NCBI RefSeq assembly: GCF_037042905.1
Contig: NC_087251.1
Location: 35,590,001 to 35,654,000, forward strand
From: Lytechinus pictus
Taxonomy: Eukaryota
Reading direction: 5' to 3'
DNA length: 64,000 bases
Every line of letters begins with the position of its first letter. Within the stretch, counting starts at the first letter, position 1. Under the pieces are notes generated by a model, which was not told the origin of the DNA, made no database searches, and saw only the letters and a list, made by a program, of their open reading frames with translations. A program made the translations under genes and the position numbers. Of this stretch, positions 25,822-64,000 are shown in pieces.

Positions 25822-28800
25822 GTCTTAAACATTATAGTAAGCTATTTCAATATCAAAATATTAAAGCAATTTCAATATTTCATACGCCTAGACATATTTC
25901 AATATTTTTTTTTAATCAAAGTTTGCTACGATTAGACCGATATTGAACGGTTCGTTTAGTGTAATTCAGAATTATTTTCATTTAACATCAATGTTTACTT
26001 TGTATGGATTGATGATATTATATTTTAAACAGCTAAATACCTTGATAGTCCACTGTAGTAAAACAACATAAAGCTTTGTTTTAATCAATTTATACTTACC
26101 CCATGCCTGGCTGAACCAAGAATGAGAAGTGACTCGTTTTCCTCCACACTATTTCTATTACTTATCTTCTTTGATACAGGCTTCTGTTCCTAGGGGAGGG
26201 TTCTCTGTATTCTGTGTCCAGAAACAACCGGTAAATACCTTTAAGATGTCTAATTCAATATAAGCGATGGAAACTTTTTTGAAGGGGATGGGTTAACTTT
26301 GATTTTCTCAAGCTAAAATCGTGGAAACAAATTGCTCATTGGTGTAGCAGATATTACATTTTTTTCAAAGTAATTAAATGCCCCGAAGCGTACTTGCATT
26401 ATTTCAATTCCTTGGAATTTACATCTTTATGAAACAAAAGAGCCATCTAATGAAGATGTTAACCTCGTGTATTTATTTACAGGACACTGGAACTTCTCCT
26501 GTATCTGATTCCATCACAACGGAACACAAGGGAACATCACAACCCGATGAAAAGGTATTGGTTAGTACTAATCTTATAGTATCTTTTACCTTTAACTATT
26601 GATGTAAAAAAACACGATAATGGTGTCTGCCTTATTGAAGAGTTCTGCATAATGATGGTTATAATAATAATAATAAATGGGTTCGTACATGAATATCGCT
26701 CAAATCTTTCAAACCTGTCGAGACAACGGGCTAGCTTTTCAAGGGTACCTCACCTTGGTCGAGTTTGGCAAACGTATAGAGTGGTAATATTTTCTCCTCG
26801 ATCTTAAAGTGTGTGTTTCCAAGTATTTATTTGGTAGATAGGAGGGAGATTGCATCTAAATGTAAAGCGGCCTTCCACAACGTCACAGATACATAAAGTA
26901 TTGCATGCACGATTAAAACATGATCATATTTTCTTAATATTGTATAAATATTAATCATTAACCGGGAATTGTCACAAACTTACCTTTACGATCAAGAATA
27001 CTGTTTTCAAAGAATGCAGTTTTCAAAGATTGCATTCAAATGAAAGTTATTGATATATTTTCATAAATTTAACTTAAACCTTTATTTTTCTTATCTCAAA
27101 GCTTGTTGCTCCAAAAGGAGGATTTTCCATCTTCTCCGTGAACAAGCAACCGGTAAGTATATCAGAATGTAAGACCTTAGTTAATATGAGATGGATTTGG
27201 AATCTAGATAATGGAAACTGTTATCACTGATTAAAAGAATTTGAAATTTCTCTTCTGATTTGTAAATATAATTCTGAAACTTGTTTGACCTTAACTTACC
27301 CAAACAGATTGAGCATCAAAAAAATATACTCTCATGCTCAACGATTCCTTTTACATACTTATTACAATGTAAGGCACTTTTCTTCATTTTATTTAATCAG
27401 GACACCCTGCCTTCTCCCAAGAACTCTGGCATAGATGTAACAGATCACACGCAGAAGAACAATTCTGTGAATAAGGTATGTGAAACAAAACCCAAAATGC
27501 ACATTATATACCAAATAACCATATTTAAATTTTCTTTGAGTTTCATTAAATGTGTTTGAATCGAAGTAAAAGGATTTGAATATCTTAAATTTTGTACAAT
27601 TTCCAGTTTTAGTTTCAGTTTTATGAATGATACATCAGAAGGTTATTTCATCCATTAACATCATAATCATGATGTTAAAACTGTTAAAAATGAGAGATAT
27701 ATTTTTGCATATAAATCAAGTTGATTTTTTATGATCGAGATATATATATTTACAATATTCAACTTATTTGTTGCAACAGGATCAACCCAGTGGTAACAAT
27801 GGCTACAGCTTCCTGCCACGGATCACACCATCCATTGAATCCACTGTGTCATCTTCTCCTAAGACCATCAAAGGATCCGGATCTGATGTCCAACTGACCA
27901 ACTGTCCTCTGGAGAGTCCACCAGCGACATGCAAACCCTATCAAGAGCCTTTGAAGACCAAGGCCCCTTGGGATTCTGTGTCTGATGGAAAGGTACACAA
28001 GACCAGAGTCGCTGAGAATCTGAAACAGATCGTTATCAGTCCAGAAGCTGACTCTAACATGGACAAGGACGCTGATGAATCCGGATGTTTTACGAGCCTA
28101 AGCCAGGTCAACGGCGGCACGTCTAAAGTGAAGCTCATTCACGTTCGTCCAGCTCCAGATGCTAACTTGCCGATTACGACCACTGGAGATTCCACATCTG
28201 ATACTGCAGTTACTAAGATCCAAAGCCAGAATAACAGTAGCACTCCAAATGTGAGGGTCATTCAAGTAAGACCGGCCAACGACCCTTACTTTAAGATCGC
28301 TACTACCAGGGAATCTAGACCTTCTGACCTGGCTTGCAGGAATGGGAGTTCAACTAAGGCATGCAACAACACCGTGACCAGCGCACGCCTCATCACCGTG
28401 AAACCAGTGCAAGAGCCCCTGCAAACCAAGGTCAATGATGTATCTGCTACAGGAGTCCAGAAGATCCTTGATGCTACGAACGCGGCTGTTACGGGAATTA
28501 AATCTACTTCCACTGAGATCACAGTCTCCAAGCCAACGCCACCTTCCGTTGCAACGAATGACGTGCTCCCGATCAAGAACCTCGGACCTCTTGTCGACCC
28601 ACTGAAGTGGCAGTACCCAGTTCCTCCTCCTAAGATCCAGAACTGGACCACCGAGCCACTAGAGCTGTCAAAGAGCCCTCTCCCCAGCAGCGGACAAGGA
28701 GAAGTATCTCTGAAAAATCTCTTCGATCTGAGCCATAGACATCCAACCTGTCCTGAAGAATCAGATACTGTTTCCAGATCTCAAAACCTCGATGTTGTTC

Positions 28801-31800
28801 CCGCGGCAAATGGAGGAGATTTTTCCAAGGTGACCTATGATTTTCTTTGAAATGTTAAGCTTTTTTCCCCCCTCATATAACCTTTCATACTATTAACTAA
28901 AACTACTTACCTGGCTTAAATGATTCCGCGGACTTCTCTTTTACTTGAAAATAAATATGCATCTAGAGTCTTTTTTTAAAGAATCTTTGAACGTAGTAGT
29001 TTATGTTTTTGTTCTTATAACTTCTATCTAGCCTTCCAAAAAGACCCGGAAGGAGCCTTCTAACAGACGATTTCCAAAATCAACCAACCCGGGAATGACT
29101 CCAGACACATCTTCTGATATCCAACAAACGGTAATTGATGATAATAATATGATAACTTTGTATAGTGCAGCTGCTATATAGATATACTCTACTGCGCTGT
29201 ATTTACTCCAATTGCTTATACTATACGTACTAAAAATTATGATCTACTTAACGAATTTTTAATTTCTTTCTTTAGTGATATGTGCTGACCCAATAAAAAA
29301 AAAATTTCGTCATTCTTTTATTGCAAATGAAAATGATAACGAAAATACATTAATGAATAAGAATAAGTGTTATTAAAACCTTGAATTTGATCAAAATGGT
29401 GTCAAATGATCGTATATTACCAAAGAAAAAATAGAAGTGCACTTATTACATGCACCACACAAATCAGTATTTAGGAAAAATCTTACTTCTACCACTTTGG
29501 TTTTTTTTAATAGTTTATCATCTTTTTCAAAAACCACGATCTCAGTCTCATTTTTGTCTCACCTGCGAAGCAGAGTGAGACTATAGGCGCCGCTTTACCG
29601 ACGGCGGCGGCGGCGTCAACACCAAATCTTAACCGAAGGTTAAGTTTTTGAAATGACAGCATAACTTAAAAAGTATATGAACCTAGTTCATGAAACTTGG
29701 CCATAAGGTTAATCAAGTATTACTGAACATCCTGCTTGAGTTTCACGTCACATGACCAAGATCAAAGGTCATTTAGGGTCAATGAACTTTGGCCAAATTG
29801 GGGGTATCTGTTGAATTACCATCATAACTTTGAAAGTTTATGGATCTGATTCATATAACTTGGACATAAGATAGTCCGGGTTATAATTGAGCAAGGTGCC
29901 ACACGGAAAAGTAGAAATTTTTATATAATGCTTCTAAACCAGTTTTTTACGCTGAATATGAATATATGAGGTAATCAGGCTGTATCCTGAAGATTAACCT
30001 GTGAGGGCGCTTTTTTCAAAATGGCCGCCAAACTTTCAGAACATTTGAATTTTCATACATAGATTTTGACATAAACATTACATTGCCACAAAAGTAGTGT
30101 CATATGAAAGACAAAAAAATTCCACCAATTTGGTACTATTTATCGGGGATAAGTAGGTCATTTGACTGAGATTTTAAGTCGAAAACTGCATTTTTTGTCA
30201 TTTTTTCCAAAAATTGAAAATTTTGGAAATACATGATTTTACATAATTCTAAGAAATATAAATCAATTACCTTGAAATGCTCCAGAAAACTTTATTGATT
30301 TACTATTATTATGTGGATAAAATTCCAACTCTGTATCATTCTCTTTAGCAAATTTATGAGGTATCAAACTTGAATAATCAAATTTCAGAAATGTCGCTTT
30401 TTTTGTATGCATTTCCGTAGACTAATACGTATAACATGTATGATGTTTAATTAAAAACTAAATGCAATTATTTACACTTTTTAACCACTTGGAGAGTCAA
30501 GAGTAGGCGTTTCTCTATCAGCTAAAAAAAGATGTGGGCACATCGAGGCCTACCCGCGGCCCTCTCGGGGGTGGGTGTCAAAGTCACAGCCCCCCCCCCC
30601 CCTCACCCTGGCCCCATGGGTGGGGCAAGTTGAGCCATTTGACATCTTTGAAAGGTGATAGTGACTTTTAGTGTCGAGGTAGAATGTTATACATGGGTTA
30701 AAAAAATGTTTCCCAAGAATGAATCTTTAAGGCAGAGTACTTATTTCTACGAGATTTTGAATCATAAGATCTAACATGAAAAAAGAAAAAAAAATGGTTC
30801 AACTAACCCCGCCTTCCCCTACGCTTTGTTCTACCAGCTACATCTAAAGAAGAGGCAAATCGAAGCCTACCCTTCTCGGGGGATAGGGGGTGTGGAAGTC
30901 ACCTTCCCTCTCATTGCCAATTTATTTGAAAATTCACCTTTTTGGACCCAACATTGAAGCAAAAAAGCGTTTGTGCTTTGCACATCGATTCCTAGCTCTC
31001 TCAGGGGCTAAGTCACGTACCACCCCCCCTCCCCCTTATATCATGTATATTGCCTGTTAATTGGAAATTTCACCATTTTGGTTCACACATTGAGGCATAA
31101 GAGCGCTTCTACTATATAATGCAGCCAATTTTATTTTCTTGCAATGACTTGGAGAGGAAAGGGTATCATTTACATATAATAATAATATGTCCATTTATAT
31201 AGCGCAGTTACTATGTGCATATACTCAACTGCGCTTTGATACTTGGTATCATATTATTACCCCGGCTGTAACTGAGCCGCCATATTAATAGGCGCTCAAG
31301 CGTTCAAGGAATAAATCCTACTGAGTACCCATTCACATCAGCTAGGTCGAGTGCAGCATAATGTGGACAAATTTCTTGCCGAAGGAAATTACGCCATGGG
31401 TGGGATTCGAACCTATGACCCTCTGTTTCAAAGCCACAACGCTCCACCATAATATTATAAAGAAGCTCTCGTACATCGAAACCTAGTCCCCAAAGGGGCT
31501 GTCTAAGTCACCCTCCCCCCTCTATATCATGTCTATTGCCTATTTAGTGGAAATTTCAACATTTTGGATCGCCCATTGAAGCAAAAGGGCGTTTCTTCTA
31601 TATAGTACAGCCAATTCTATTTTCTTGCAATAACTTGGAGAGGAAAGAGTAGGCTTTGCTTTATCAGCTTCATACTATAAAGAAGTGTTTGCATATCAAA
31701 GCCTATCCCCTTCAGGGGGCTGTAGAATTTACCCCATCAATTTTTGGTATTTGGATATTTATTGGAAAAGTCACCATTTTGGAGCCCCCATTGAGGCAAA

Positions 31801-45867: not shown

Positions 45868-48800
45868 AGTAGTAGTAGTAGTATTTATTTCCGTATTAAA
45901 AGCACAATTATATACAATAAAATACGGTGGATAGCCCACATTCAGCGTGACTGGCACAGTAGCGCTGGTCTTCCGTGGGGTCCATAACATTTAACATTAA
46001 CGTATAATTTAGACACAAATAAACCACATTAGATTAACAGATGTACAGAAGAAAAATGAAAATGTAAATATCAACAGTAAACATATTAAGATTTAAAAAA
46101 AAAAAAAAAAAAAAAAAAATTAAGGGGCGCAAACCTAACAGGGAATGGGGGGGGGTACCGGAGTCCATGTGCTACAGATCAACAATCTTAGATTTGAAAA
46201 TATTAATACTAGGGGATGATTTGATGTGAAGAGGAAGGGAATTATAAGCCATGGCGCTTTTATACTTGAAGGATCTTTTGAGGTAATTTGTTCTTGGTTT
46301 TGGTAATTTAAATTTGGTTCCGAAACGGGAGGGATACGTATGTGATACTAACTCAAATTCATTTCTTAAATATTTTGGAGATAGATTATTCATGATCTTA
46401 TACATGAGAATAAGGGAATGATCGTTTCTTCTTTTGTCCAACAATTGCCAATTTAGTGTATCATGCATTTCCAAAATAGATATATGAGATTCGGGTTTAA
46501 TTTGGAGTATAATACGACCTGCTCTGTTTTGCAGTTTTTGAAGGCGGTCTGTGTATTTCCTAAAGGATGCATCGTAAACAACATCACCATAATCAAAGTA
46601 GGGGAGGATCAATGAACTATATATTAATTTCAGGATCGATTCACTTAAGGATCGCCGCAATCTTCCCAGAAAGCCGACTAATTGACCTATTTTTTGCAAC
46701 ATGTTGTCTATATGCAAGTTAAAATTCAAATAATCATCAACTATGATGCCTAGGTATTTGACATGATGAACTTGTTCTAATGGGGTATTATTTAAGGAAA
46801 CATGAAGGACATTTTGTTTAGAAATCATATTCTTGCTTCCGATGAGCATACAGACCGTTTTTTGACAGTTAACACTTAACTTATTCTGGCACATCCATTG
46901 GTACATATTTTCTAAATCTGAGTTTAGGGCCTCGTTGATTCTATCTATGGAGGGGTGTGAAAAATACAAAACGGTGTCATCCGCATACAATTGGATATGA
47001 CATGTATTAATACATTTCACTAGATCATTGACATATAATATAAAGAGCAGTGGCCCCAGGAGTGATCCCTGGGGCACACCGCAGTTAATAACTGATTCAT
47101 AAGAGAGTTCCGAATTGATAAGAGTCCTACAAACCCGGTTTGACATGTAACTTCGAAACCATAAGGATGGTGTGCCAGAAATACCTAAGTTATTCATTTT
47201 TTTCAAAAGAATATCACAGTTCACGGTGTCGAATGCTTTTTTTAAATCGACGAAGACGGCCCCAATGTAATGTTTAAGATCGATTGAGTGAAACCAGTCA
47301 TTGGTTACCTTTAGGAGAGTGGTAATGGTTGAGTGCCTTGGCCGAAAACCGGATTGGGCAGGTGTCAGAATATCATTATTTCGCAAAAAATCTAAAACTT
47401 GCCGTTGGACAACCCTTTCCAGTATTTTAGATACGCAGGGCAAAATTGAGATGGGCCTATAATTCGAAGGAGAATTTTTATCGCCACCTTTGTGAATTGG
47501 GATAATCTTAGCTTGTTTCCATTGTTGCGGAAATATACCGCTTGACAAAGATAAATTAATCAACTTAGCAATACTCATTGATATCTCCATAGAGCATGCC
47601 TTCAAGACAAAGACAGATATCTTATCAACACCGACAGACTTAGTGTTTTTAAGATTTCTTATGATTTTCAAAACATCATGTTCGTTCACCTGAGTGAATG
47701 CAAAAGTCTCATTTGTATAATTACCATCTTCTGTATGGAGGTTCATATCGGGTATTTCACTGGCTAATTGTCTCCCTACATTTGCAAAGTAAGTGTTGAA
47801 TAGGTTAGCAGTTTCAGTATTACAATCCGAATTAGACGAAACTGTGAGATTTTCACGTTTTTTATTCGGAATAATGGACTTTAAGGTTTTCCAAGTCTGT
47901 TTTGGGTTTACCTTAAGATTTGTAAATTTATCAGAGTAATACCGTTTCTTTGATTTCCTTACTTCATTTGTTACCTTATTTCGTAATATTCTGTACTCGC
48001 ACATAAGTTTATCATCTTTCAGTTTGCAAGCTTTTCTTTTAAGTTTGTCACGTTTTTTCATGAGTTTACAAATATTTGCATTCATCCAAGGAGAACCCTT
48101 TGTACTTATTCTTTTTGAACGATTTGGCATGTGTTTGTCAACAACTTGTAAAAACATATTTTGCCATAAATCGACAGCATCATCAACTGAATTACATTGA
48201 TCTATACTTTCCCAATTCTGGTTACGAATATCATTTCTAAAGTCATCAATATTGAGCTTGCTGCAACTTCTGAAAGTGATAAATTTTGGCTGAGCACAAA
48301 TCTTAGAGTTCCAGGTCAGGAAGCTAATCGAATGGTCACTCATTCCGTTATGAATTACACCATGATTCACTAAGTTTTTGGTGTTGTTTGTTAATAGGTG
48401 ATCAATCAATGTAGCAGAAAGATTAGTGATTCTTGTTGCTTCTTTGGTATTAACTTGGACCAGAGAATAAACATTATTTATATCAATATATTTCTTGGTC
48501 ATGCTTGATAAGGGTTTAGCTAGGATATCACAGTTTACGTCACCTGCTATAACTATATCACAATTCATTGTGTCAATAATGCTTAGAAATCTTTCATACA
48601 AATTAAAGATTCCAATATCTGAGGATGGTGGTCTATACCAAGTTGATACGATGAGAGGTTTTGAAAACTTGAGATAAATCTTAATAACAAGTGCTTCTAA
48701 ATCATCAAGGAATTCGTGAATCATTTTTTCAAAATGTAATGAATTGTGGAGATAAATGGCTACTCCACCACCCTGTCGAACTCTGTCTTTACGAACCAAA

Positions 48801-49320
48801 TTGTAATCGTCAATCATAATTTCTTTATCATAGATAGATTCATCTATTTTGGTTTAATTAATTGCGAATACCTGAACCTTGTTAGTCTTAACAAATGTTC
48901 TCACTTCTTCAATGTGTCTTAGTAGGCTGTTAACATTTAAATGGGCGATCTTAAGGCCATTACCACGTAATTCTTGGTAGTATAAACCATGAATACAAGC
49001 AATGTTTCGGTGGGTAGTATTTGTACTGACATTAACTGACTCTGGAATAGTGATATTTTCCGATTCATTATAGAAGGGCATGTCCTTAAAAATACAAATG
49101 TTGCATTGCCAACCGAAAAAGTTCTCTGACTTGTCATTGTAGATCTCTTCAGGAATACCAGCACAAATGATATGTAGCCATTGATTGCATTTGGTACACT
49201 TCAGTCCCTTCTGATTGTTCTTAACCGGTTTCATACAACAGGCACATGCTTTCATATAATCTTTCATATATTCTCAAGGAAAATACATGTATGTTCATCC
49301 ACGTTGGAATGACCCATGCA
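45868..49320 (-). mobile_element. CR1/L2-group non-LTR retrotransposon (PHD-APE-RT), near full length
   Basis: ORF with APE and RT motifs; 3' UTR with stem-loop-like GGACCCCACGGAAGACCAG...TGTGGGCTATCC, then AATAAA and a (TAC)n tail ending at ~45868. Confidence 0.92.
46172..49267 (-). pseudogene. LINE ORF2 (PHD finger, AP endonuclease, reverse transcriptase) with one in-frame stop at 48854-48856
   Basis: PHD CACC..CTKC.QWLH..C...WQCNIC; APE motifs HLNVNSL, YRPP, GDVN, LIDH, SDH; RT motifs YRPISIL, QSGFR, DLKKAFD, GVPQGS, YADD, YLG. ORFs 48854-49267 and 46172-48817 share a frame (AIN*TKIDESIYDKEIMIDDY). Confidence 0.92.
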
Positions 49321-49600: not shown

Positions 49601-49708
49601 AATTATGTGAGTAATCGAAGTCCTTTCGCGCGCGTTTCATGATTACGTATTATTACAAGGTTGAACGTTAATTTTCTTCATTTCCCAACAAATAATCATC
49701 GAGTCAAC

Positions 49709-50882
49709 ATGAATACGTTGGATATGCCCAACCGTTACGCTTGTTCACGATGCGATAAAACCTTTAGTAGGAGGTACGATATGCAAAGGCATGAACAAAA
49801 CGAGCATGATACTGGACAAGAAACGAGTGAAGATGAAGACTCCGACCCATCCTCTCAAATGCAAAGAGTTGAAGAATCCAACGATGATTCTGAAACGAGC
49901 GTATCAGAAAGCGATGGACACGAATCGTCAATGACAGCAAACATGGAAGAAACTGAAGCCCGGGGGGGGGGCACTCGACCACAAAAGTGGTGGGGGTGTG
50001 CCGCGGGCGAGACAAAAAACGGGGGCCTTGGAGCGGGCTTATTGTAAAAAGGAGGGTCCTCGGAACGGGCTTCGGAACTACAAATGTTTGTGAAAACGGG
50101 GGTCCTTGGAACGGGTCGCCTGCGTGCGAGTGCGTATACATCTCTATGGAACGTGCATGCAGCTGGGCTACGGCACGACTGCCGGGCGCGCTAGCGCAGA
50201 GGCGATGGTTAGACAGCGAGTTGCGGCCGCTTTTCACCAAAATTGCGACCGGAACGGCGTAACGGAAAATATGCGAAGCCCTGGAGCGGAATTTTGTTCT
50301 TCTTTTTTCTCGAGAAGAAGAAAATGCTATGCTTTGGAGCGGCTTTCTTTGTTCTTTTTCTCAATAAGACAAAAATGCTATGCCTCGGAACGGAAATTTG
50401 AGTGTAAAAATGGGGGTCCCCTCCGCGGCACATACCCACTATGCATTATATACTGAGTGCCCCCCCCCCCCCCGGGAACTGAAGACAACCTCGCTTATCG
50501 CGGATGGTTAGAGCAAGCCATGACGGCCACCAAGGACTTGAGAGACGAAAAATATCAGAAATACATCTCAGAAGGAATGGAAGAAGAAGACGCTAAAGCA
50601 AAGGCTCACGTGAAACTAATGTGGGCAGTCAAACGCATCTTTTTCGATCTTTACTCTCAGTTCTTGCAGCAGAACGTGTACCACGAAGACGCTGACATCA
50701 ATCGTGAAATCGTGTCCGATCTCTCGGAAAGATTAGAGAATGGCATGGAATTCCGGAAAGCCGTACAGAGAGTGTTAGCCAGGCATGGTTCACAATTCGA
50801 TGGTTTATTCCAGTATCGAGGTGACGATGACGATGATGATGGTGGAGAAGAAACGGAGGGTGAAGATGGAGTCTACAACTAA
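49709..50882 (+). pseudogene. Intronless C2H2 zinc finger / acidic / helical-domain gene (215 aa when reconstructed), disrupted by a MITE; probably Polinton/Maverick cargo
   Basis: YACSRCDKTFSRRYDMQRHEQNEH finger; deleting 49959-50484 joins ...MEETE to DNLAYRGWLEQAM... in frame to the stop at 50880-50882. Confidence 0.8.
49959..50476. mobile_element. 518-bp MITE with CCCGGGG(n)CACTC TIRs and 8-bp TSD
   Basis: TSD AACTGAAG at 49951-49958 and 50477-50484; a second copy of the right end lies at ~60660-60857. Confidence 0.92.
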
Positions 50883-54492: not shown

Positions 54493-55480
54493 TTGGTCCA
54501 ACTGACAGTTGTCCAATACCGACTTGCTCCAATACAAATTTGGTCCAACTCCCACTCGGTCTAATGACCGTTACTGTGGGCAGGACAGGTTTCGGACATT
54601 AAATTTGAGTTATATCTGCATGACCCGTCGCTTAACTCTTCTATTTAAAAAAAAAAATACAAAGCAAAAAAAAATACATGTATATCTTAGATTTCTCCTC
54701 TTGTTTTTCCCCTCCCCCCCCCCTTTTTTTTTTTGTTCAGAGTTATCCAATGAATGTAATCAGATATTGAATTGTTCATTTTTTTAATCATTTTTTTTAC
54801 TAGGGGTGTTTTTATGACTCTGATATTGAAATATAGACCAATGAAATTGGCAGAGTAATGTTCATTTATTATTTTTGAGGAGCTGTATTTTTGGGGTTTT
54901 GTTTTGATTTAGATTACGTTTTTTTTTTCATAAGTATTTGTTTATCGATCTCTATCACTACCTTTCTCTATCTCTCTCTTTCTCTCTTGAACAAGGTGTC
55001 AGTTAATTTGGACATGTAATAAATAGTATTTCTGTTTGTAATCAATTAAATTGTAACCTTTTTTGTCCTTATCATATTTTGTTTTGCGTCTTGTTTTGTT
55101 TGTTTGTTTTTTGCATTTGAAACAAATATGTAATTTAATGAAATAAAATAAATTTTCAAACTTCAGATCTGAAGAGAAAGTTATTGTACATTGTATATCT
55201 GATAGTAGGAAAGTCAATAATGTTCACAAAAGGGGTGAATGTGTGTAGGGGTATATGAAAGGCAAGAGCTGAGGGACGTGTACACCTGTTATTACCACGT
55301 GGTTGCATAGATTTATACACATTAGACCAAATGGGCAATGGACCAAGTGGGTATTAGATCAACTGTCATTTGTACCAATTTTGGCATTGGACAAACTGTT
55401 AATTTATTGGACCAAGTGGGTATTGGACCAAATGGATATCGGACCAAACGACATTCGACCAAACGGCTATTGGACGAAAT
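54493..55480. mobile_element. Degenerate foldback MITE with TTGGTCCAA / TTGGACCAA subrepeat arms
   Basis: Opposed subrepeat clusters at 54493-54565 and 55322-55480. Confidence 0.55.
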
Positions 55481-56536: not shown

Positions 56537-58368
56537 ATGGGAAGGAAAAGAAATCGGAAGAAGTCGGGACGGGCGTCTGACCCACAGCCTCCATCCAAGG
56601 AGACAAGTGTACCTCATTCATCTCATTCACCTGATCCTACGCCCCCTTCAGATGCAGCTCCATCAGGTATTCGAACTTCCGAAAGAGGGTCAGAGCCTGA
56701 CTTTGACGGGGTATAAATGTGTCTGAAAATTTCGACAAGCAACACATTTCGTACCCAAACAAATTGACAAGCAAAAAAAGATAAATGAATAAAGGTCATC
56801 GCTCATTATTTTTTACGGGGTGCAGCTGCATACCCCCCCCCCCCCCCACATCCACGCCTTGAAGGTTCAGAACGACATAACTGTAATTCAGATAATCACA
56901 TGCCTCTCATTTAAAGTCTGCTTCCCACATCAACATCAAAGTGGTTTTAATAAAAATGGAAAATCGATCTAGTTCAAACAGTGTCAGTTGTGGGAACGAT
57001 CTAAAATGTGTTCGAACGGAATTTAATGCAATCAAAGTATTTATGAAAAAAGTGCTTAATTCTGGTGCAGTGCTGAAAAAAATGACAAAACAAGCACGAC
57101 ATTCTAGACAGGTGTCGGATCTTTTCCCGACATCTGAAAACAGAGACTTCTTCCGTTACAGTGACGAAAACTACGATGCATTTTAGCCTTATCACCATTT
57201 ACTTGAACTAGATATATAGCTCGCTGAGAAAGGTGTGTTACATTGACATGATTATAGGGTTGAACTAAAAATACGAGGCATCTGTAACCTGGACTATCGT
57301 ACTTGGATTATTTGTATCACTAATTTTGTCTAATTAACCCATCAACATGTCATGGTTTTATTAACTTTTTTGTCTTGCAGATGAATCGCCCACGATCGTG
57401 GTTGATGGGAAGACTTTAATTTTTAAGAACATTGTGACAATCAATATTAGCGATGTAAACACATTTCATGTTGGAGACGTTTTTCACCATGACCATACTC
57501 ATGTGGAACATGGCGGAACTACAATATTCGAGGGTGAGATCGTGTTTTTTTTCTTTTGATGGAGATTAGACCTATCATTAGTTATGTGTTTATGGAATCT
57601 AGCAGATGTATTAGGCTCTTTACATAGCTCATATCGATATCTCGATCTGTCCCTCTCTTTCCCTTTCCCTATACTATTTCCCATCTTTCTCTCTCTTTTT
57701 TTTCTCTCTTATTCTGGACAGGGAGGACAATACTTTTTTCACAGTACTTTTCTCAGCAAGATCGTGCACTATGTTTACATAATGTTTACATCTGTGCCCT
57801 TGTTTGCATACTGCTATACTTGCCTTTATAAAATCATATATATAGTTTGTCATTTTTCCAGTGAGAGACAGACAAATTTACGTATTCTATAAATTCAGAT
57901 AAGCATCTTGATTATTCAAAATCAAGAATCGTTTCTCCTTTTTTTTAGAAATGGAAGTGGAAGCAGGCATCGAGCCTTTACCAGATTCTGCTACAACGGG
58001 AGAGGTTGATGCTGATGCTACTCCTGAAGCTGATGAACTCCTGCAGATAGTTTTCGCGAATCGCAACAATGTGGAAAAATGGAAAGAGAACAGAGACCTT
58101 TGCGCCAAATTAATGTCCCTCTTTGAACAACAAGGTGCCCTTCTCAGTAAGGCTCAGTTTGACTCCATTCATTTCTTCGTTCGTATCATGGTTGGGCCAA
58201 ACAAGGATGCCTTCATTCAAGCCTGTACAGACCGTAACAGCACCTTATTCCAAGGCTTGACAAGTCTCCTAGTAACTCCAGAACTCGAAGAAGCTGCTGG
58301 AATAAGAATAAGACTAAGATTGGCCGTCAAAGACACACCAGCAAAAGATGTCTTGTCGGCACCAAAAG
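56537..58368 (+). CDS. N-terminal exons of an uncharacterised protein: basic/Pro-Ser-rich start, RHIM-like motif, TRADD-N-like domain; continues downstream
   Basis: Exons 56537-56666, 57381-57533 and 57949-58368 have strong pyrimidine-tract acceptors, GT donors and consistent phase 1, with no stop. A possible further phase-1 exon at 62325-62387 is weaker. Domain labels are pattern-based only. Confidence 0.72.
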
Positions 58369-58719
58369 GTACCTTAGCTTGATACAAAATAATTTATTAT
58401 TCTCATAAGCCTGTATTTTAAGAAGCCACAGAGCTTCCCTCTTTAACACTTTTTCTGATGCACCCTTGCAATGTTCATAAATACTATGCTACAAGAAGAA
58501 TAATATACCTGAAGGCAACAAAAAATAATCGATGACATTATGATAATGTGATTACTTACTCATTTTGAACTTCTCCTTGTAAGCATGGGGTATATTATAC
58601 AATTTAGGCGCCGCTTAAAAAATTGTACACTGATATAATATTAGCAAAAGTAAAGGAAAGACTATCCCCCAGCAAAGCACAATCATATCATCTTTTACTA
58701 CCCTTTTCCCAACAACTTC

Positions 58720-59340
58720 GCCGGTTTAAAATAATCAGCAGTGCGCTGCCTGCATATAACTGGCGCCAATTAAGAATAATCAGCACCACCTAAATCTAAA
58801 TCGGCGCCGGACAAGAATAATCACCGCCATTTGGTTATAAATCGGCGCCAGACAAGAAAAATCGACGCTGCTTGAGTTCTTAACCGGCGCCGATCAAGGA
58901 TAATCAGCGCCACCTAAATCTAAATCGGCGCCCGACAAGAATAATCAGCGACATCTGGTTATGAATCGGCGCTGCCAGAGTCTTAACCGGCGCCGATCAA
59001 GAATAATCGGCTCCACCTAAATCTAAATCGGCGCCGGACAAGAATAATCAGCACCACCTGGTTAAAAATCGGCGCCAGTCAAGAATAATCGGCGCCAGTC
59101 GATTATGAATTGCCTCTGCCTGAATCTTACGTGACGTCGGTAAAAATAATCAGCACTACTTGTTCTAAATCAGCGCCGGTCAAGACAAATCGGCGCTGCC
59201 TTTGTCTTAACAGGCGCCACCTAAATTTAAATCGGCGCCGGTCAAGAATAATCGCCGGTAGAATAATGAAGAAGGGCCTATTGCCAACCAAATCTAGATC
59301 GGCGCCGGTCAAGAATGATCAGCGACACCTGGTTATACAT
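58720..59340. repeat. Degenerate ~40-bp tandem repeat (AAATCGGCGCCGGACAAGAATAATCAGCGCCACCT)
   Basis: Recurring GGCGCC / CAAGAATAATC units. Confidence 0.85.
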
Positions 59341-59924
59341 TTTATTGTTGAATGGTCATAACAAAGCCTCGCATGCCCTTACATAGTGGACTGGGGCGGG
59401 GGAGTTGCACAAAGATGTCATGAAATCTTTAATTTGTTATTTAAACAATTTCAAAATCATACAAAAGCGTAGAGCAAATCCTTTAATTTTTATCTTATTT
59501 TCCAATGCTTTAATAAAAAAAAAGGTCAGTCACTTTTCTTCTTTACACATTCCACATTGTGCCACCTCTATGGCCTTTAGTGTAATACAGCTACTATAGT
59601 GTTTTATGAAGATGATTCGATATTTAGTCCAAAACTTTGCTAAAACCCGTTGCTATTACCGGGAGTGTATGATTACGCAACCAGACGTATATTCGTTAGA
59701 CCTTAAACCACTAAATATCATTTTCAATGTATCGTCCCACCAATAAAAGTATTGGGGGGGGGGCAAACATCGTTTTGCCCCCCCCCCCCCCCCAATAATT
59801 CCGCATGTGCAAAAATAAAATAAGATGGTAATGTTACACAGAAATCAGCAAGCGAGATTGAGCTACACAACCCGTTCTTTATTTAAAATCGTGCTCAAAT
59901 TGTCAGCTTTTCAGATTGGAATAT

Positions 59925-62900
59925 AAATATTTTCAGCTCGCGCTTCGCGCTCGCATCATTTCTGTAGCAAAACCCCATACTTTTCATGATTAAATAGGTG
60001 AATAGAATGTTCCGTTTTCAGTTATAAACCTCAAAAGAACTCCCGCTTCGATTTGCAATAATCGTTTGTTGGATATAAGCTTGTTCTTTATTAAAAACGT
60101 CCATTAAACTGTCATTTTTTTCAGATCGAAATATCAAAATTTTAAGCGCGCGCTTCGCGCTCGCATCTATTCTCTTTTTTAGATACCCATCTTAATCATT
60201 GGTACCAAAAATGCTAAGAATATCAAGCTTTCTGGTCAGAATATAAAGAAATTTCAGATCGCCCTCGGCACTCGCATTATCTGTGTAGTGAGATATGTAT
60301 TCTCCTCATGAGTTACTACAAACAGTCTTTAAAAGGCACCTTTTTCCTGTTTTCAGGTCAGTGTACTAAAAAATTTCAAATTCCCGATCAGTTGTTGTGA
60401 AAACACATTTTTTCCTTAACATTTCATGAAAACTATGAAAAATGTGCAAATGTGAGATGTGCACCAAGTACTTTTATTACACTTGTAAAAAAAATAATAA
60501 TCGCCCCATTGAGCAGCTCGGTCCGTTTACTCTATCGTTTTTATTTTTTTTTCAAAAATATGTTTGAGTCTTGCCCCCCCCCCCACCCCCCCCCCCCCGG
60601 AAATATTATCTGCGTGTGGTCATGCAAAATGGAATGACTGGAAATCCTACATTTTGAAAAGAGCATTTTCTTTTATTTCTTTCTTCTTTTCTCTCGATAA
60701 GAAGAAAATGCTATGCTTCGGAGCGGCTTTCTTAGTTCTTTTTCTCAATAAGATGAAAATGCTATGCCCTGGAACGGAAATTTGAGTGTAAAAATGGGGG
60801 TCCCCTCCGCGGCACATACCCACTATGCATTATATACTGAGTGCCCCCCCCCCCCGGTGCATAGGTCTAATGAAAAAAAATGTAAAAATAATCCTCCGTG
60901 CCTTAAGTTTCATGAGTCATGTGAGTCGGGTAGATAAGTCAGTTTTTTTAAGGTCATGGCCAGTAGCGTACCGTGACTCGGAGGAGACAAAGCATTGGGG
61001 GGGGGCAAAGCATTGTTCACAGACAATGCAGTGCCCCCCCCCCCCCAGTGCTTTGTCTCCTGCGGTTCACGGTACGCTACTGGTCATGGCTGTACACAGT
61101 GGGGGCAGTCGCTCCCCCTCCCCCCCCAAAAAAAAAATTTTGAAAACTCACATTTTCACTGCAGATTTTCAAAAAATTCACAAAAATTATGCTCAAAGTC
61201 CATTATTTTTTCTTAACAAATAATAAGCTTGGTAGCTTCGCTCCCTCACTTTTGAGATTTTTTCCAAAAGGTTTACGCGTGCTGCCCCCCCCCCCCCCCA
61301 CCCCAGCGAAAAAGTTCTGCATACGGCCATGTTTCGCTCCGCCGCCCCTGGCTCATGCCGAGGCATGGCGTCCGTCGTAATTTAATCTGTTTGTTTAAAA
61401 ATGAACTAGGTGTGGGCTTCAAGCCTTCTACACAAACTTTGAACCTCAAAAAATATGCTAATTTATGCGCATTTTTTCATAATTCACAAACACTGCTTAT
61501 CTATGATTTCTTGACCGATTTTGATTTTTTTCCCATCTGGGACAGACATGTCCCACGACAGATTTCTATTCTTTCTTTATTTCATTTTTATCTTCTGCAG
61601 CCTTGCAGTGTTCTTAAGTGCTTCTCTTGTTTTTTTTTTCTTTTTGCTTTTCCTTCCTTAAAATTTACATTCGCTCATGTCATTGTACCTTCATTTCATG
61701 TTTCTTTTCATCCCTTTAATTTTTTTTCCTTTTATCCATCCCCGTTCCTTTTTGTGTTATTTCTCACATATTCATATATTCCTATTTCCTTTCCATCTTT
61801 CCTTCCTTTTCCTTTCTTTTCTTGTTTTCCTGTTTTCTTTTTCATTTCTTTTCCAATTTCATTATTTCCCTCCTCTCCTTTCAATGTTTGAATATACATA
61901 TATATATACAGTATATATATATATATATATGTAACAATGGAGGGGGAACTTATGCATTCTTAAGATTTCAATTTCTACCACTTGAACCACTAGCGTACCT
62001 AAGGGGGGGGGGCAGGGGGGCAGACTGCCCCCCCCCCCTGACGAGTTACAAGCAAAAAAAAAGAAGCGAAAAGGGAAAGAAAAAAGAAAAGAGGAAAAAG
62101 GAAAGAGAAAAAAGGGGGAAGGGGAAAAAGAGTTTAAGAGAAAGGGGGAAACAAAAACTGGACTGCGGACTGTCGGAAAAAATATAAACTGTCGGGCACA
62201 CGGGGCTGTTCCAACTGATTCGGTTTTTTAGTTCCACCATCTTTGTTGGTAAATGTCAATTAAACTGTACACTTTTATCGGTATATTGTGATTTTTACGC
62301 AATGCGACTTTTAGAGCTCTCTAGTACCGATAGTGAGGACGGACTGGTCTGACCAGGGACAGGAAAAAGGTAGAGAACAACTTTTAGGTAATGTAATTAT
62401 AACAATAAAAATTTCGCTCGCGCTTTGCGCTCGCATCAATTTTTTTAGTTGGATATTTAAGATAAATGTCTAGTTTTTAGGTTAAAATATCAAAAAATTT
62501 CAGCTCGCACTTCGCGCTCGCGTCAATTGATTAGTTAAAAACCAATTTGTTCACCGTTACAAAAAGTGCTTAGGCCGGAATATCAAAATTTTTAGCTCGC
62601 GCTTCGTGCTCACATATAACTGTTTAGGTATATCCATCCTGTTCATAGTTAAATGAAGTGTTTAGAATGTCCGGTTTTCAGGTCGGAATATAAAGAATAA
62701 AAAATATATCATTAGAAACCAATTTGTTCACGGTTATAAAAATTGCTTAGAATATCATGTTCTTAGGTCGGAATACAAAATAAGTGTCAGCTCGAGCTTC
62801 GCACTCGCATAAAATTCCATCCTGTTCATAATTAAATGAAGTGATCAGAATGTAAAGTTCTCAGGTCGCTTCGCGCTCACACCAATTAATTGTTTTTAAC

Positions 62901-63312
62901 TACCATCTTGTTCATAGTTCCAAAAAAAAGGGTGCTTAGAATGTCCACTTTTCAGGGGGGAATATCTCAAATTTTCAGCTCGCTCTTCGCGCTCGTATCA
63001 ATTTATTATTCAGTTAGAAACCAATTTGTTCATGGTTACTAAAAGTGCTTAGAATATCAAGTTCTTAAGTCGGAATATCAAAAGTTTTAGTTCACACTTC
63101 GCGCCCGCACGACTGTTTAGATACCCATCCTGTAAAACTGCTTAGAATGTCTAGTGTCCAGTTAGGAATATCAAAATTTTTAGCTCGCGCTTCGCGCTCG
63201 CATAATTAATTAAGTAATATACCCATCACCATTCAGAATTAAGTGCACAAAATGTATCATTTTAGGTCTAAATTTTTAGAAAAAAATTCAGCTCGCGCTT
63301 CGCGCTCGCAAT
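59925..63312. repeat. Clusters of the dispersed repeat with core TTTCAGCTCGCGCTTCGCGCTCGCAT (59925-60290, 62410-63312)
   Basis: The same core occurs at ~45170-45750 and in reverse at ~14935-15530 and ~52790. Confidence 0.8.
60660..60857. mobile_element. Right-end fragment of the CCCGGG-TIR MITE family
   Basis: Nearly identical to 50290-50475. Confidence 0.85.
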
Positions 63313-64000
63313 TACTATTTTTATATTATTATTTTTAACCGATTTCAATGTCAAATACCTCTTTTATAATGTCTCCAAATGAGCAGATGGGAACATAATG
63401 TAAACACCTTCAAAGGGGAATAAAAGAAGTATTTTAGTATAAAAATTGTAATTACCACTTGATAGAAATATATCGATCACGATCCAATACATATCATTTC
63501 TGGAATGATATACAAAAAAAAGAATTAATTTTGACAATAAAGTGCAATCGCCCGATAGCAAATATCAGAAGTAGCAAGATCCCAACAGTTTTTGGGGCAC
63601 CCCCTGGGTAACATTTCCCACCTTCAGTGCCACTGCCAGACCTACACATCCAAACGTGTATGGGAGGGAGGGGGTGGGCTGCAAAATGCAGGGCAACGAG
63701 GAACTGCGAGGTGACCAAATATCATCGTGTATTGGTAATTTTATGACCGAATGTATAATTTCTGCACGTTTCACATCATGTAAAAAGGCTAAATAATAAT
63801 TGAAAAAAAAATGTTTGCTCGCTTCGAATTTGAGCAATTATTATTATTATCATTATTATTATTATTATTAAAATATTATTATTATTATCATTATCATTAT
63901 TTATTACTATTTGACAGAATTTAAAACAAATCAATTTAACTCTTCAGTTCCAATGATAAAAATATTTGTTAAAGTAACAAAAAAATTAGACACTGGATGA

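Follow-up and report, generated by a model that had tools for sequence, protein, structure and literature searches.

Human SAMD9 and SAMD9L are antiviral STAND-like NTPases, and the vertebrate proteins start with a SAM domain. The available part of Mekhedov et al. 2017 (PMC5445408) states that SAM is confined to vertebrate SAMD9s and that the N-termini of invertebrate members carry Death-superfamily domains, not TRADD-N. The TRADD-N domain is described in the accessible sections of Kaur et al. 2021 (PMC8195603) as an RRM-like two-layer alpha+beta sandwich with a four-stranded antiparallel sheet and two kinked helices, and as having a conserved ‘uS’ motif (a tiny residue plus Ser) in the beta2-beta3 turn. 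The supplement of the same paper lists proteins with the architecture TRADDN-DEDD2+SAM+STAND+TPRs, namely XP_003727489.1 of Strongylocentrotus purpuratus and XP_022081709.1 of Acanthaster planci. Here we describe a gene of the urchin Lytechinus pictus that shares this domain family and architecture and is one of two tandem paralogs. It lies in a stretch of 64,000 nucleotides (C7:35590001-35654000 of the 812-Mb genome), hereafter the window. We conclude, with a probability of roughly 0.8, that its first three coding exons supply 234 residues that extend a SAMD9-like STAND NTPase at the N-terminus, and are thus the front end of a SAMD9-like gene, with a TRADD-N domain as output head.

A database search with the peptide encoded by exon 3 returned two L. 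pictus proteins, P0005 and P0004. P0005 is annotated as ‘sterile alpha motif domain-containing protein 9-like’, has 1,539 amino acids (aa), opens with a Met that lies within exon 3 and shows 100% identity to our peptide over the common part. Its residues 85-1491 are encoded by a single open exon at C7:35654084-35658304 and its tail by C7:35658909-35659067 (98-100% identity). This main exon of about 4.2 kb, exon 4, encodes the SAM domain and the SAMD9 body and begins at window-equivalent position 64088, 88 bases beyond the window end, where the acceptor ...ttttaacag is directly followed by AATATTCT. Joining the phase-1 G of 58368 to exon 4 yields the reading ...SAPK-EYSPVPFK, which is identical to P0005. 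The features of the window gene are as follows.

56537-56666, plus strand: coding exon 1, 130 nt, whose ATG at 56537 abuts an AG acceptor; it ends in phase 1, with a GT donor at 56667
57381-57533, plus strand: coding exon 2, 153 nt, phase 1-1, between AG at 57379-80 and GT at 57534-35
57461-57481, plus strand: the heptad T-F-H-V-G-D-V (core FHVG), within exon 2
57949-58368, plus strand: coding exon 3, 420 nt, phase 1-1, between AG at 57947-48 and GT at 58369-70
58164-58166, plus strand: codon for Ser72 (exon-3 peptide numbering), the beta2-beta3 turn serine present in every aligned family member
58369-64000, plus strand: intron 3, which runs on for 87 bases beyond the window end

The exon borders, their AG/GT dinucleotides and the translations that the original prediction had quoted all agree with the letters. 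Since the exons measure 130, 153 and 420 nt, every junction falls in phase 1 and exons 2 and 3 are symmetric, as had been proposed. The join of exons 1, 2 and 3 follows the NCBI model of the paralog (P0004), and that of exons 3 and 4 the NCBI model P0005 of the window gene. Spliced in this way, the gene would encode a product of about 1,688 residues, the first 234 of them from exons 1-3. Exon 1 supplies a basic leader (MGRKRNRKKSGR) followed by a low-complexity stretch rich in S and P. Exon 2 reads in frame as ESPTIVVDGKTLIFKNIVTINISDVNTFHVGDVFHHDHTHVEHGGTTIFE, a beta-prone segment that gives way to a His-rich tail (HHDHTHVEH), and its last residues enter strand beta1 of TRADD-N. Exon 3 encodes the stretch GALLSKAQFDSIHFFVRI...RIRLRLAV and is laid out as strand beta1 (EVEAGIEP), an acidic linker and the remainder of a TRADD-N domain of the DEDD2 clade. 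The whole protein would therefore run from the leader through a beta-prone and His-rich segment of about 45 residues and the TRADD-N domain to SAM and then the SAMD9 body, itself made up of a nucleic-acid-binding region, a P-loop NTPase, TPRs and a C-terminal region.

The assignment of the body is firm in comparison with the solved structure of human SAMD9: residues 231-1426 of P0005 match it at E 2.5e-74, so that the homology spans the region from AlbA to OB, including the P-loop NTPase and the TPRs. Pfam recognises little in this body. Ahead of it a SAM-like stretch matches the SAM domain of SARM1 at E 0.0023. The urchin protein thus resembles human SAMD9/SAMD9L in its body and in the SAM-like domain that precedes it, but it has about 234 extra residues, including TRADD-N, ahead of SAM. 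The SAM-like domain of this urchin protein (C7:35654088 onward) is at odds with the statement in the available part of Mekhedov et al. 2017; in the supplement of Kaur et al., too, members from echinoderms are annotated with SAM. Two further, more distant SAMD9-like genes are present on contig 4 of the L. pictus genome. The original prediction had treated the gene as uncharacterised; it is instead the N-terminus of an annotated SAMD9-like gene of published architecture. Its proposal of a protein of innate-immune type holds well, given the SAM, STAND NTPase and TPRs that follow. The analysis also corrects an annotation: the NCBI SAMD9-like model begins inside exon 3 and so loses the leader, the beta-rich segment and half of TRADD-N.

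The domain that exon 3 specifies is a TRADD-N domain of the DEDD2 clade. A resemblance to TRADD-N had been proposed from the order of strands and helices, and it is borne out by a profile match, the predicted fold, an invariant Ser, the rank in a structure comparison and the published assignment of the relatives. We modelled the exon-3 peptide with AlphaFold2 (AF2) from a family alignment of nine sequences. The model has the topology b(2-9)-a(25-35)-a(41-60)-b(63-71)-b(74-81)-a-a-a-b(120-127), an RRM-like arrangement with broken helices, and its top structural matches are all ferredoxin/RRM-like. In the model of the paralog the TRADD-N core reached a predicted local distance difference test score (pLDDT) of 75-90. 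Ser72 is invariant in all nine aligned sequences and sits between strands 63-71 and 74-81, where the ‘uS’ motif is expected; the residue before it is tiny (Gly) in two of the nine and D, K or R in the others. When the models were compared with 48,161 chains, the solved TRADD-N structure 1f2h_A ranked third for the paralog model (Z 6.2, root-mean-square deviation (rmsd) 4.2, 106 residues aligned) and fifteenth for the exon-3 model (Z 4.9, rmsd 4.4, 104 aligned), ranks that agree with TRADD-N without deciding for it. The top matches of a protein-language-model search (0.93) were clusters with the Pfam family TRADD-like_N (PF20694), to which 15 of the 30 matches belong; TRADD and DEDD clusters stood lower in the list.

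A genome scan with PF20694 gave three places above the cut-off, and an open reading frame (ORF) on contig 8 of the same genome, which scores 52.4 bits on that family, served as the template for a direct profile comparison. Against it, hhalign aligned our family at a probability of 77% and E 2.1e-5 over 69 columns, pairing Ser72 with the GS serine of this bona fide TRADD-like_N domain. On re-running, the real score was 34.2, while 200 shuffles of the template gave at most 18.4 (mean 11.7); the template is a single sequence, and the support for the profile link is moderate. The best profile match among PDB sequences was a synthetic protein (E 8.6e-4), which we treated as spurious. A complex prediction for two copies of P0004 residues 49-245, in which the alignment was unused and the fold of the partner is uncertain, scored 0.00 against a mark of 0.32 and counts neither for nor against. 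On contig 8 itself, two identical 131-aa frames with TRADD-like_N (52.4 bits) are located at C8:31877362-31877754 and C8:35279356-35279745, 3.4 Mb apart and on opposite strands.

The relatives of this domain are few. A phmmer search with P0004 over 1.84 billion representatives found six proteins at E<=0.001, the query included, and two word-indexed profile searches found four each, of which P0011, P0012 and P0013 were new. A scan of JGI metagenome data using the family alignment matched 128 pattern stretches, none of them a relative. All named relatives outside Lytechinus come from S. purpuratus, are 48-56% identical to the exon-3 domain and fall into three kinds of protein.

P0006/P0014, S. 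purpuratus: the domain with SAM and the start of a SAMD9 body
P0007/P0015/P0016, S. purpuratus: a small protein with the domain and a C-terminal Death domain
P0012/P0013, S. purpuratus: the domain with a RIG-I-like helicase, and RIG-I_C at E 2.2e-40 in P0013

In P0007 the Pfam Death match covers profile positions 4-81 of 86 at E 0.013, below the cut-off, and this protein's C-terminus matches 112 further places in the L. pictus genome. The TRADD-N subfamily domain itself is present in the L. pictus genome only in the two SAMD9-like paralogs. The three kinds also occur in a supplement (fig4-data1) to the paper of Kaur et al. (PMC8195603), where XP_011679352.1 (P0015) is listed as TRADDN-DEDD2+Death, XP_788029.4 (P0012) as TRADDN-DEDD2+RNA-receptor helicase+RIG-I_C-RD and XP_011671465.1 (P0014) as TRADDN-DEDD2+SAM. 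Both the TRADD-N assignment and the TRADD-N+SAM+STAND architecture are thus already catalogued, and the window gene adds a member. The general lesson is small for this reason, and the HVG segment of exon 2 is the sole undescribed part. SAMD9 has no occurrence in the main text of that paper, and RHIM is unmentioned in the main text and in the searched part of supplement file 4. The S. purpuratus protein P0007/P0015 has the same domain order as vertebrate TRADD (TRADD-N, then Death), and the solved TRADD-N is among the top structural matches. Unlike that protein, the urchin domains are placed in the DEDD2 clade by Kaur et al., who find the classic TRADD clade in vertebrates only (PMC8195603), and the Pfam TRADD_N family fails to match the urchin domain. 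In echinoids a single TRADD-N subfamily thus stands at the front of SAMD9-like, RIG-I-like and Death-domain proteins, three kinds in all, and this sharing points to a common output route for two families of virus sensors.

The paralog is located 140 kb downstream of the window gene. Its product P0004, annotated as ‘uncharacterized’, has 268 aa and is 80% identical to the exon-3 peptide; in this model the equivalents of exons 1, 2 and 3 are spliced together, and the frame then runs on past the exon-3 donor into intron sequence.

C7:35785642: exon 2 of the paralog
C7:35786200: exon 3 of the paralog
C7:35799687-35803733: large exon of the paralog, 71% identical to the large exon of the window gene

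Introns 1-3 of the two genes are identical at 97.6%, 89.2% and 83.3% of positions and exon 2 at 88.9%. The ratio of nonsynonymous to synonymous substitution rates (dN/dS) between them is 0.90 for exon 2 (13 nonsynonymous and 4 synonymous changes) and 0.5 for exon 3. Judged from their sequences, the two paralogs are a recent duplication. A 12-nt in-frame deletion distinguishes the window gene (57951-58368), which is without the residues PRIL at the start of the first TRADD-N helix; PRIL is kept in the paralog (C7:35786200-35786628) and in all three S. purpuratus relatives. The paralog further has a 5' exon of five codons (MVVGK) at C7:35782106 (L066 7407-7421), ahead of the exon that starts MG.... 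A homolog of this exon was not found in the window, where homology ends near position 55414, and the two genes may differ in promoter or first exon. We considered that the MG start might be N-myristoylated but rejected this on consensus rules, position 3 being a basic residue.

Several results weigh against the TRADD-N head of a SAMD9-like protein as we describe it. The exon joins rest on NCBI gene models and splice-site logic. The AF2 model of the exon-3 peptide has a mean pLDDT of 66.6, which is moderate, and Z values of 4.9-6.2 are tied with those of IS200-type transposases and other RRM-like folds, lie under Z 8 and stay below the level that would exclude a merely common arrangement. Foldseek against the PDB had nothing at E<=0.001 and listed only generic ferredoxin-like folds; among PDB sequences, neither phmmer nor a profile search turned up TRADD. 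The Pfam families PF09034, PF13820 and PF20694 left the exon-3 peptide unmatched at E<=10 and missed the window locus when scanned across the genome, no Pfam TRADD-N family matched P0007, P0011 or P0014 at E<=1, and Pfam found no family at E<=10 in any of the three exon peptides. That the TRADD-N domain acts as an adaptor, and with which binding partner, is what we infer. A short stand-alone product is also possible, in which exons 1-3 would form a separate protein of leader, motif and TRADD-N that ends in intron 3 and acts as a free adaptor or decoy, replacing the long form or existing alongside it. The intron-3 read-through of P0004 is of this kind, its 268 aa ending beyond the exon-3 donor, the corresponding read-through in the window stops after five codons (ORF 57912-58382), and the large exon of the paralog is 13 kb distant. 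We nevertheless consider such a product unlikely: the NCBI model P0005 connects exon 3 to exon 4 in the window gene, the exon-3 donor GT and its phase fit exactly, and the supplement of Kaur et al. lists TRADDN-DEDD2+SAM+STAND+TPRs as one protein in S. purpuratus and Acanthaster.

The segment encoded by exon 2 calls for a separate assessment. The original prediction saw in it an amyloid motif of the RHIM or cRHIM type, since INISDVNTFHVG fits the RHIM spacing. The fit is visible in the sequence, but the pattern was picked after the fact, goes unrecognised by Pfam and language-model tests, and has an expected count of about 0.5 over all six frames of 64 kb by a rough estimate from typical residue frequencies. 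According to the accessible part of a review (PMC13506858), the RHIM is an amyloidogenic segment of 18-20 residues with the tetrad (V/I)-Q-(V/I/L/C)-G. The cRHIM is conserved only loosely, measures about 25 residues, has a predicted beta structure and occurs in pathway members that interact. The exon-2 segment is beta-prone and modelled with low confidence, and its motif is shared only by TRADD-N proteins. It resembles the RHIMs of RIPK1, RIPK3, ZBP1 and TRIF and the cRHIMs of PGRP-LC/LE and Imd as a short beta-prone segment that ends in hydrophobic-polar-hydrophobic-Gly within an innate-immune protein; it differs from them in that FHVG takes the place of (V/I)-Q-(V/I/L/C)-G, a Pfam RHIM match is absent, no motif-carrying partner was seen and the amyloid role is putative. 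The amyloid motifs of fungal and bacterial NLRs (HET-s/NWD2, BASS) are likewise short and N-terminal in a STAND NTPase, as the accessible part of PMC13506858 describes them, but there the same motif also stands on a separate effector, and no second carrier was found in the L. pictus genome. Directly upstream of TFHVGDV the Lytechinus genes have an imperfect copy of the heptad, TINISDV, hence a duplicated unit. We considered whether exon 2 could be a repeat or transposon fragment and discarded this, as the exon has only two copies in the genome, both in SAMD9-like paralogs.

Under the RHIM/cRHIM reading, exon 2 would be a functional amyloid that assembles in a cross-beta manner through I-x-D-x3-F-H-V-G, with itself or with a partner sharing the motif, in the way of RIPK1/RIPK3 or PGRP-LC/Imd. 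The segment is beta-prone within a region of otherwise low confidence; in the paralog model (P0004) residues 1-9 and 44-95 and most other residues up to 95 have a pLDDT below 50, in keeping with the ‘otherwise disordered’ surroundings that had been described. This low pLDDT of residues 44-95 is neutral and neither supports nor refutes an amyloid motif, though AF2 does leave the segment undocked from the globular domain. Its position, N-terminal to the adaptor domain of a STAND NTPase, is that of the fungal and bacterial NLR amyloid motifs as given in the accessible part of PMC13506858, which also presents cRHIMs as loosely defined; given such loose conservation, sequence alone does not decide against one. 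The best argument for constraint comes from the heptad. Of the family models, three reach upstream of TRADD-N and the other four named ones start at the Met that opens exon 3; T-[FL]-H-V-G-[DN]-V is found in all three proteins modelled upstream (the window gene, P0004 and P0007/P0015). In S. purpuratus P0007/P0015 it reads TLHVGNV, with F->L and D->N, and stands in SKTLTVRHGYTLHVGNV, ahead of TRADD-N, although flanks and His-rich tail differ there, and within exon 2 the differences between the paralogs cluster upstream of it. Beyond the two paralogs, no L. pictus gene carries the heptad. Against an amyloid of the RHIM type, FHVG departs from the RHIM tetrad at two of four positions (P0007 has L-H-V-G) and P0007 is without N/D at position -7. 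Pfam RHIM (PF12721) had no match to the exon-2 peptide at E<=10, and its genome scan gave four weak matches (E 1.5-7.7), all below the cut-off and none at the window locus. A language-model search with the exon-2 peptide gave no usable match. Conservation of exon 2 between the paralogs carries no weight because the duplication is recent and dN/dS is 0.90; the exon identity of 88.9% equals that of the introns. The heptad pattern occurs at 10 places in the 812-Mb genome versus three for a reversed control; beyond the two paralogs, seven of the 10 lie in stop-ridden frames and one in the reverse transcriptase of a retrotransposon, so no partner gene was found. An amyloid-templating pair would need a second carrier, and the L. 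pictus genome has shown none. RIPK1-type RHIM proteins, moreover, are absent from echinoderms as reported in the available part of PMC12119088. With FHVG off the tetrad, no Pfam match and thin conservation, we regard the RHIM/cRHIM reading as improbable.

We give about even odds to the view that exon 2 has no autonomous function and is a fast-evolving linker or beta-extension of TRADD-N whose C-terminal end starts beta1, the likeness to RHIM having arisen by chance. In the paralog model beta1 spans residues 98-109 and crosses the junction of exons 2 and 3, dN/dS is about 0.9 in exon 2 versus 0.5 in exon 3, the exon is shorter and without the His-rich tail in S. purpuratus P0007, its peptide has no family matches of any kind, and the tetrad alone is expected often by chance on a rough estimate. 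What speaks against a pure linker is that the heptad persists from Lytechinus to Strongylocentrotus while its flanks change, which suggests some constraint, albeit in three sequences. This same persistence could be read differently again, with T-[FL]-H-V-G-[DN]-V as an echinoid signalling motif of a new, non-canonical amyloid or prion-like type by which SAMD9-like and perhaps RIG-I-like sensors would template a TRADD-N+Death adaptor. We hold this to be a long shot, marginally more so than the RHIM/cRHIM reading; if true, it would give metazoans an equivalent of the fungal NWD2/HET-S and bacterial BASS systems, in a phylum from which RIPK1-type RHIM proteins are reported to be missing. All in all, the segment of exon 2 most probably extends or links the TRADD-N module in a lineage-specific way. 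Its His-rich run HHDHTHVEH (57482-57510), which has six His in 15 residues if the FHVG His is included, is present in both Lytechinus paralogs and not in S. purpuratus P0007, and is a putative metal- or pH-sensitive element.

Taking exons 1-3 as the front end of the SAMD9-like protein, TRADD-N would be the output or adaptor module of a cytosolic sensor, in a role like that of the CARDs for RIG-I. It would link the activated, oligomerised sensor to downstream partners of the Death-domain or TRAF type, possibly by homotypic contact with a TRADD-N+Death protein or through a TRAF-type MATH domain, as the accessible sections of PMC8195603 describe for vertebrate TRADD. The symmetric phase-1 exons could let the TRADD-N module shuffle between sensor genes, and for this clade Kaur et al. 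have proposed fusion aided by retrotransposons (PMC8195603). A non-LTR (non-long-terminal-repeat) retrotransposon is located 7 kb upstream of the gene, at 46172-49273 on the minus strand, with an 893-aa frame that matches RVT_1 (E 5e-39) and, ahead of it, a 139-aa frame that contains a PHD finger (E 8.7e-7); the presence of this element is no more than a coincidence worth noting.

Intron 3 contains a tandem array at 58772-59253 with periods of 41 bp and 103 bp, 3.7-4.9 copies and 71-87% matches, whose units are built on AATCGGCGCC...AAGAATAATCAGC. Elsewhere in the window, two open frames of 134 and 141 aa are found at 49643-50882 on the plus strand, of which the first contains a single C2H2 zinc finger (E 7.7e-5) and has an acidic tail and the second matches no family; the two may belong to a different gene as exons, or to a mobile element. 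Further upstream, a 371-aa frame rich in S/T/P without a Pfam match (27735-28850, plus strand) may be a large exon of an upstream gene.

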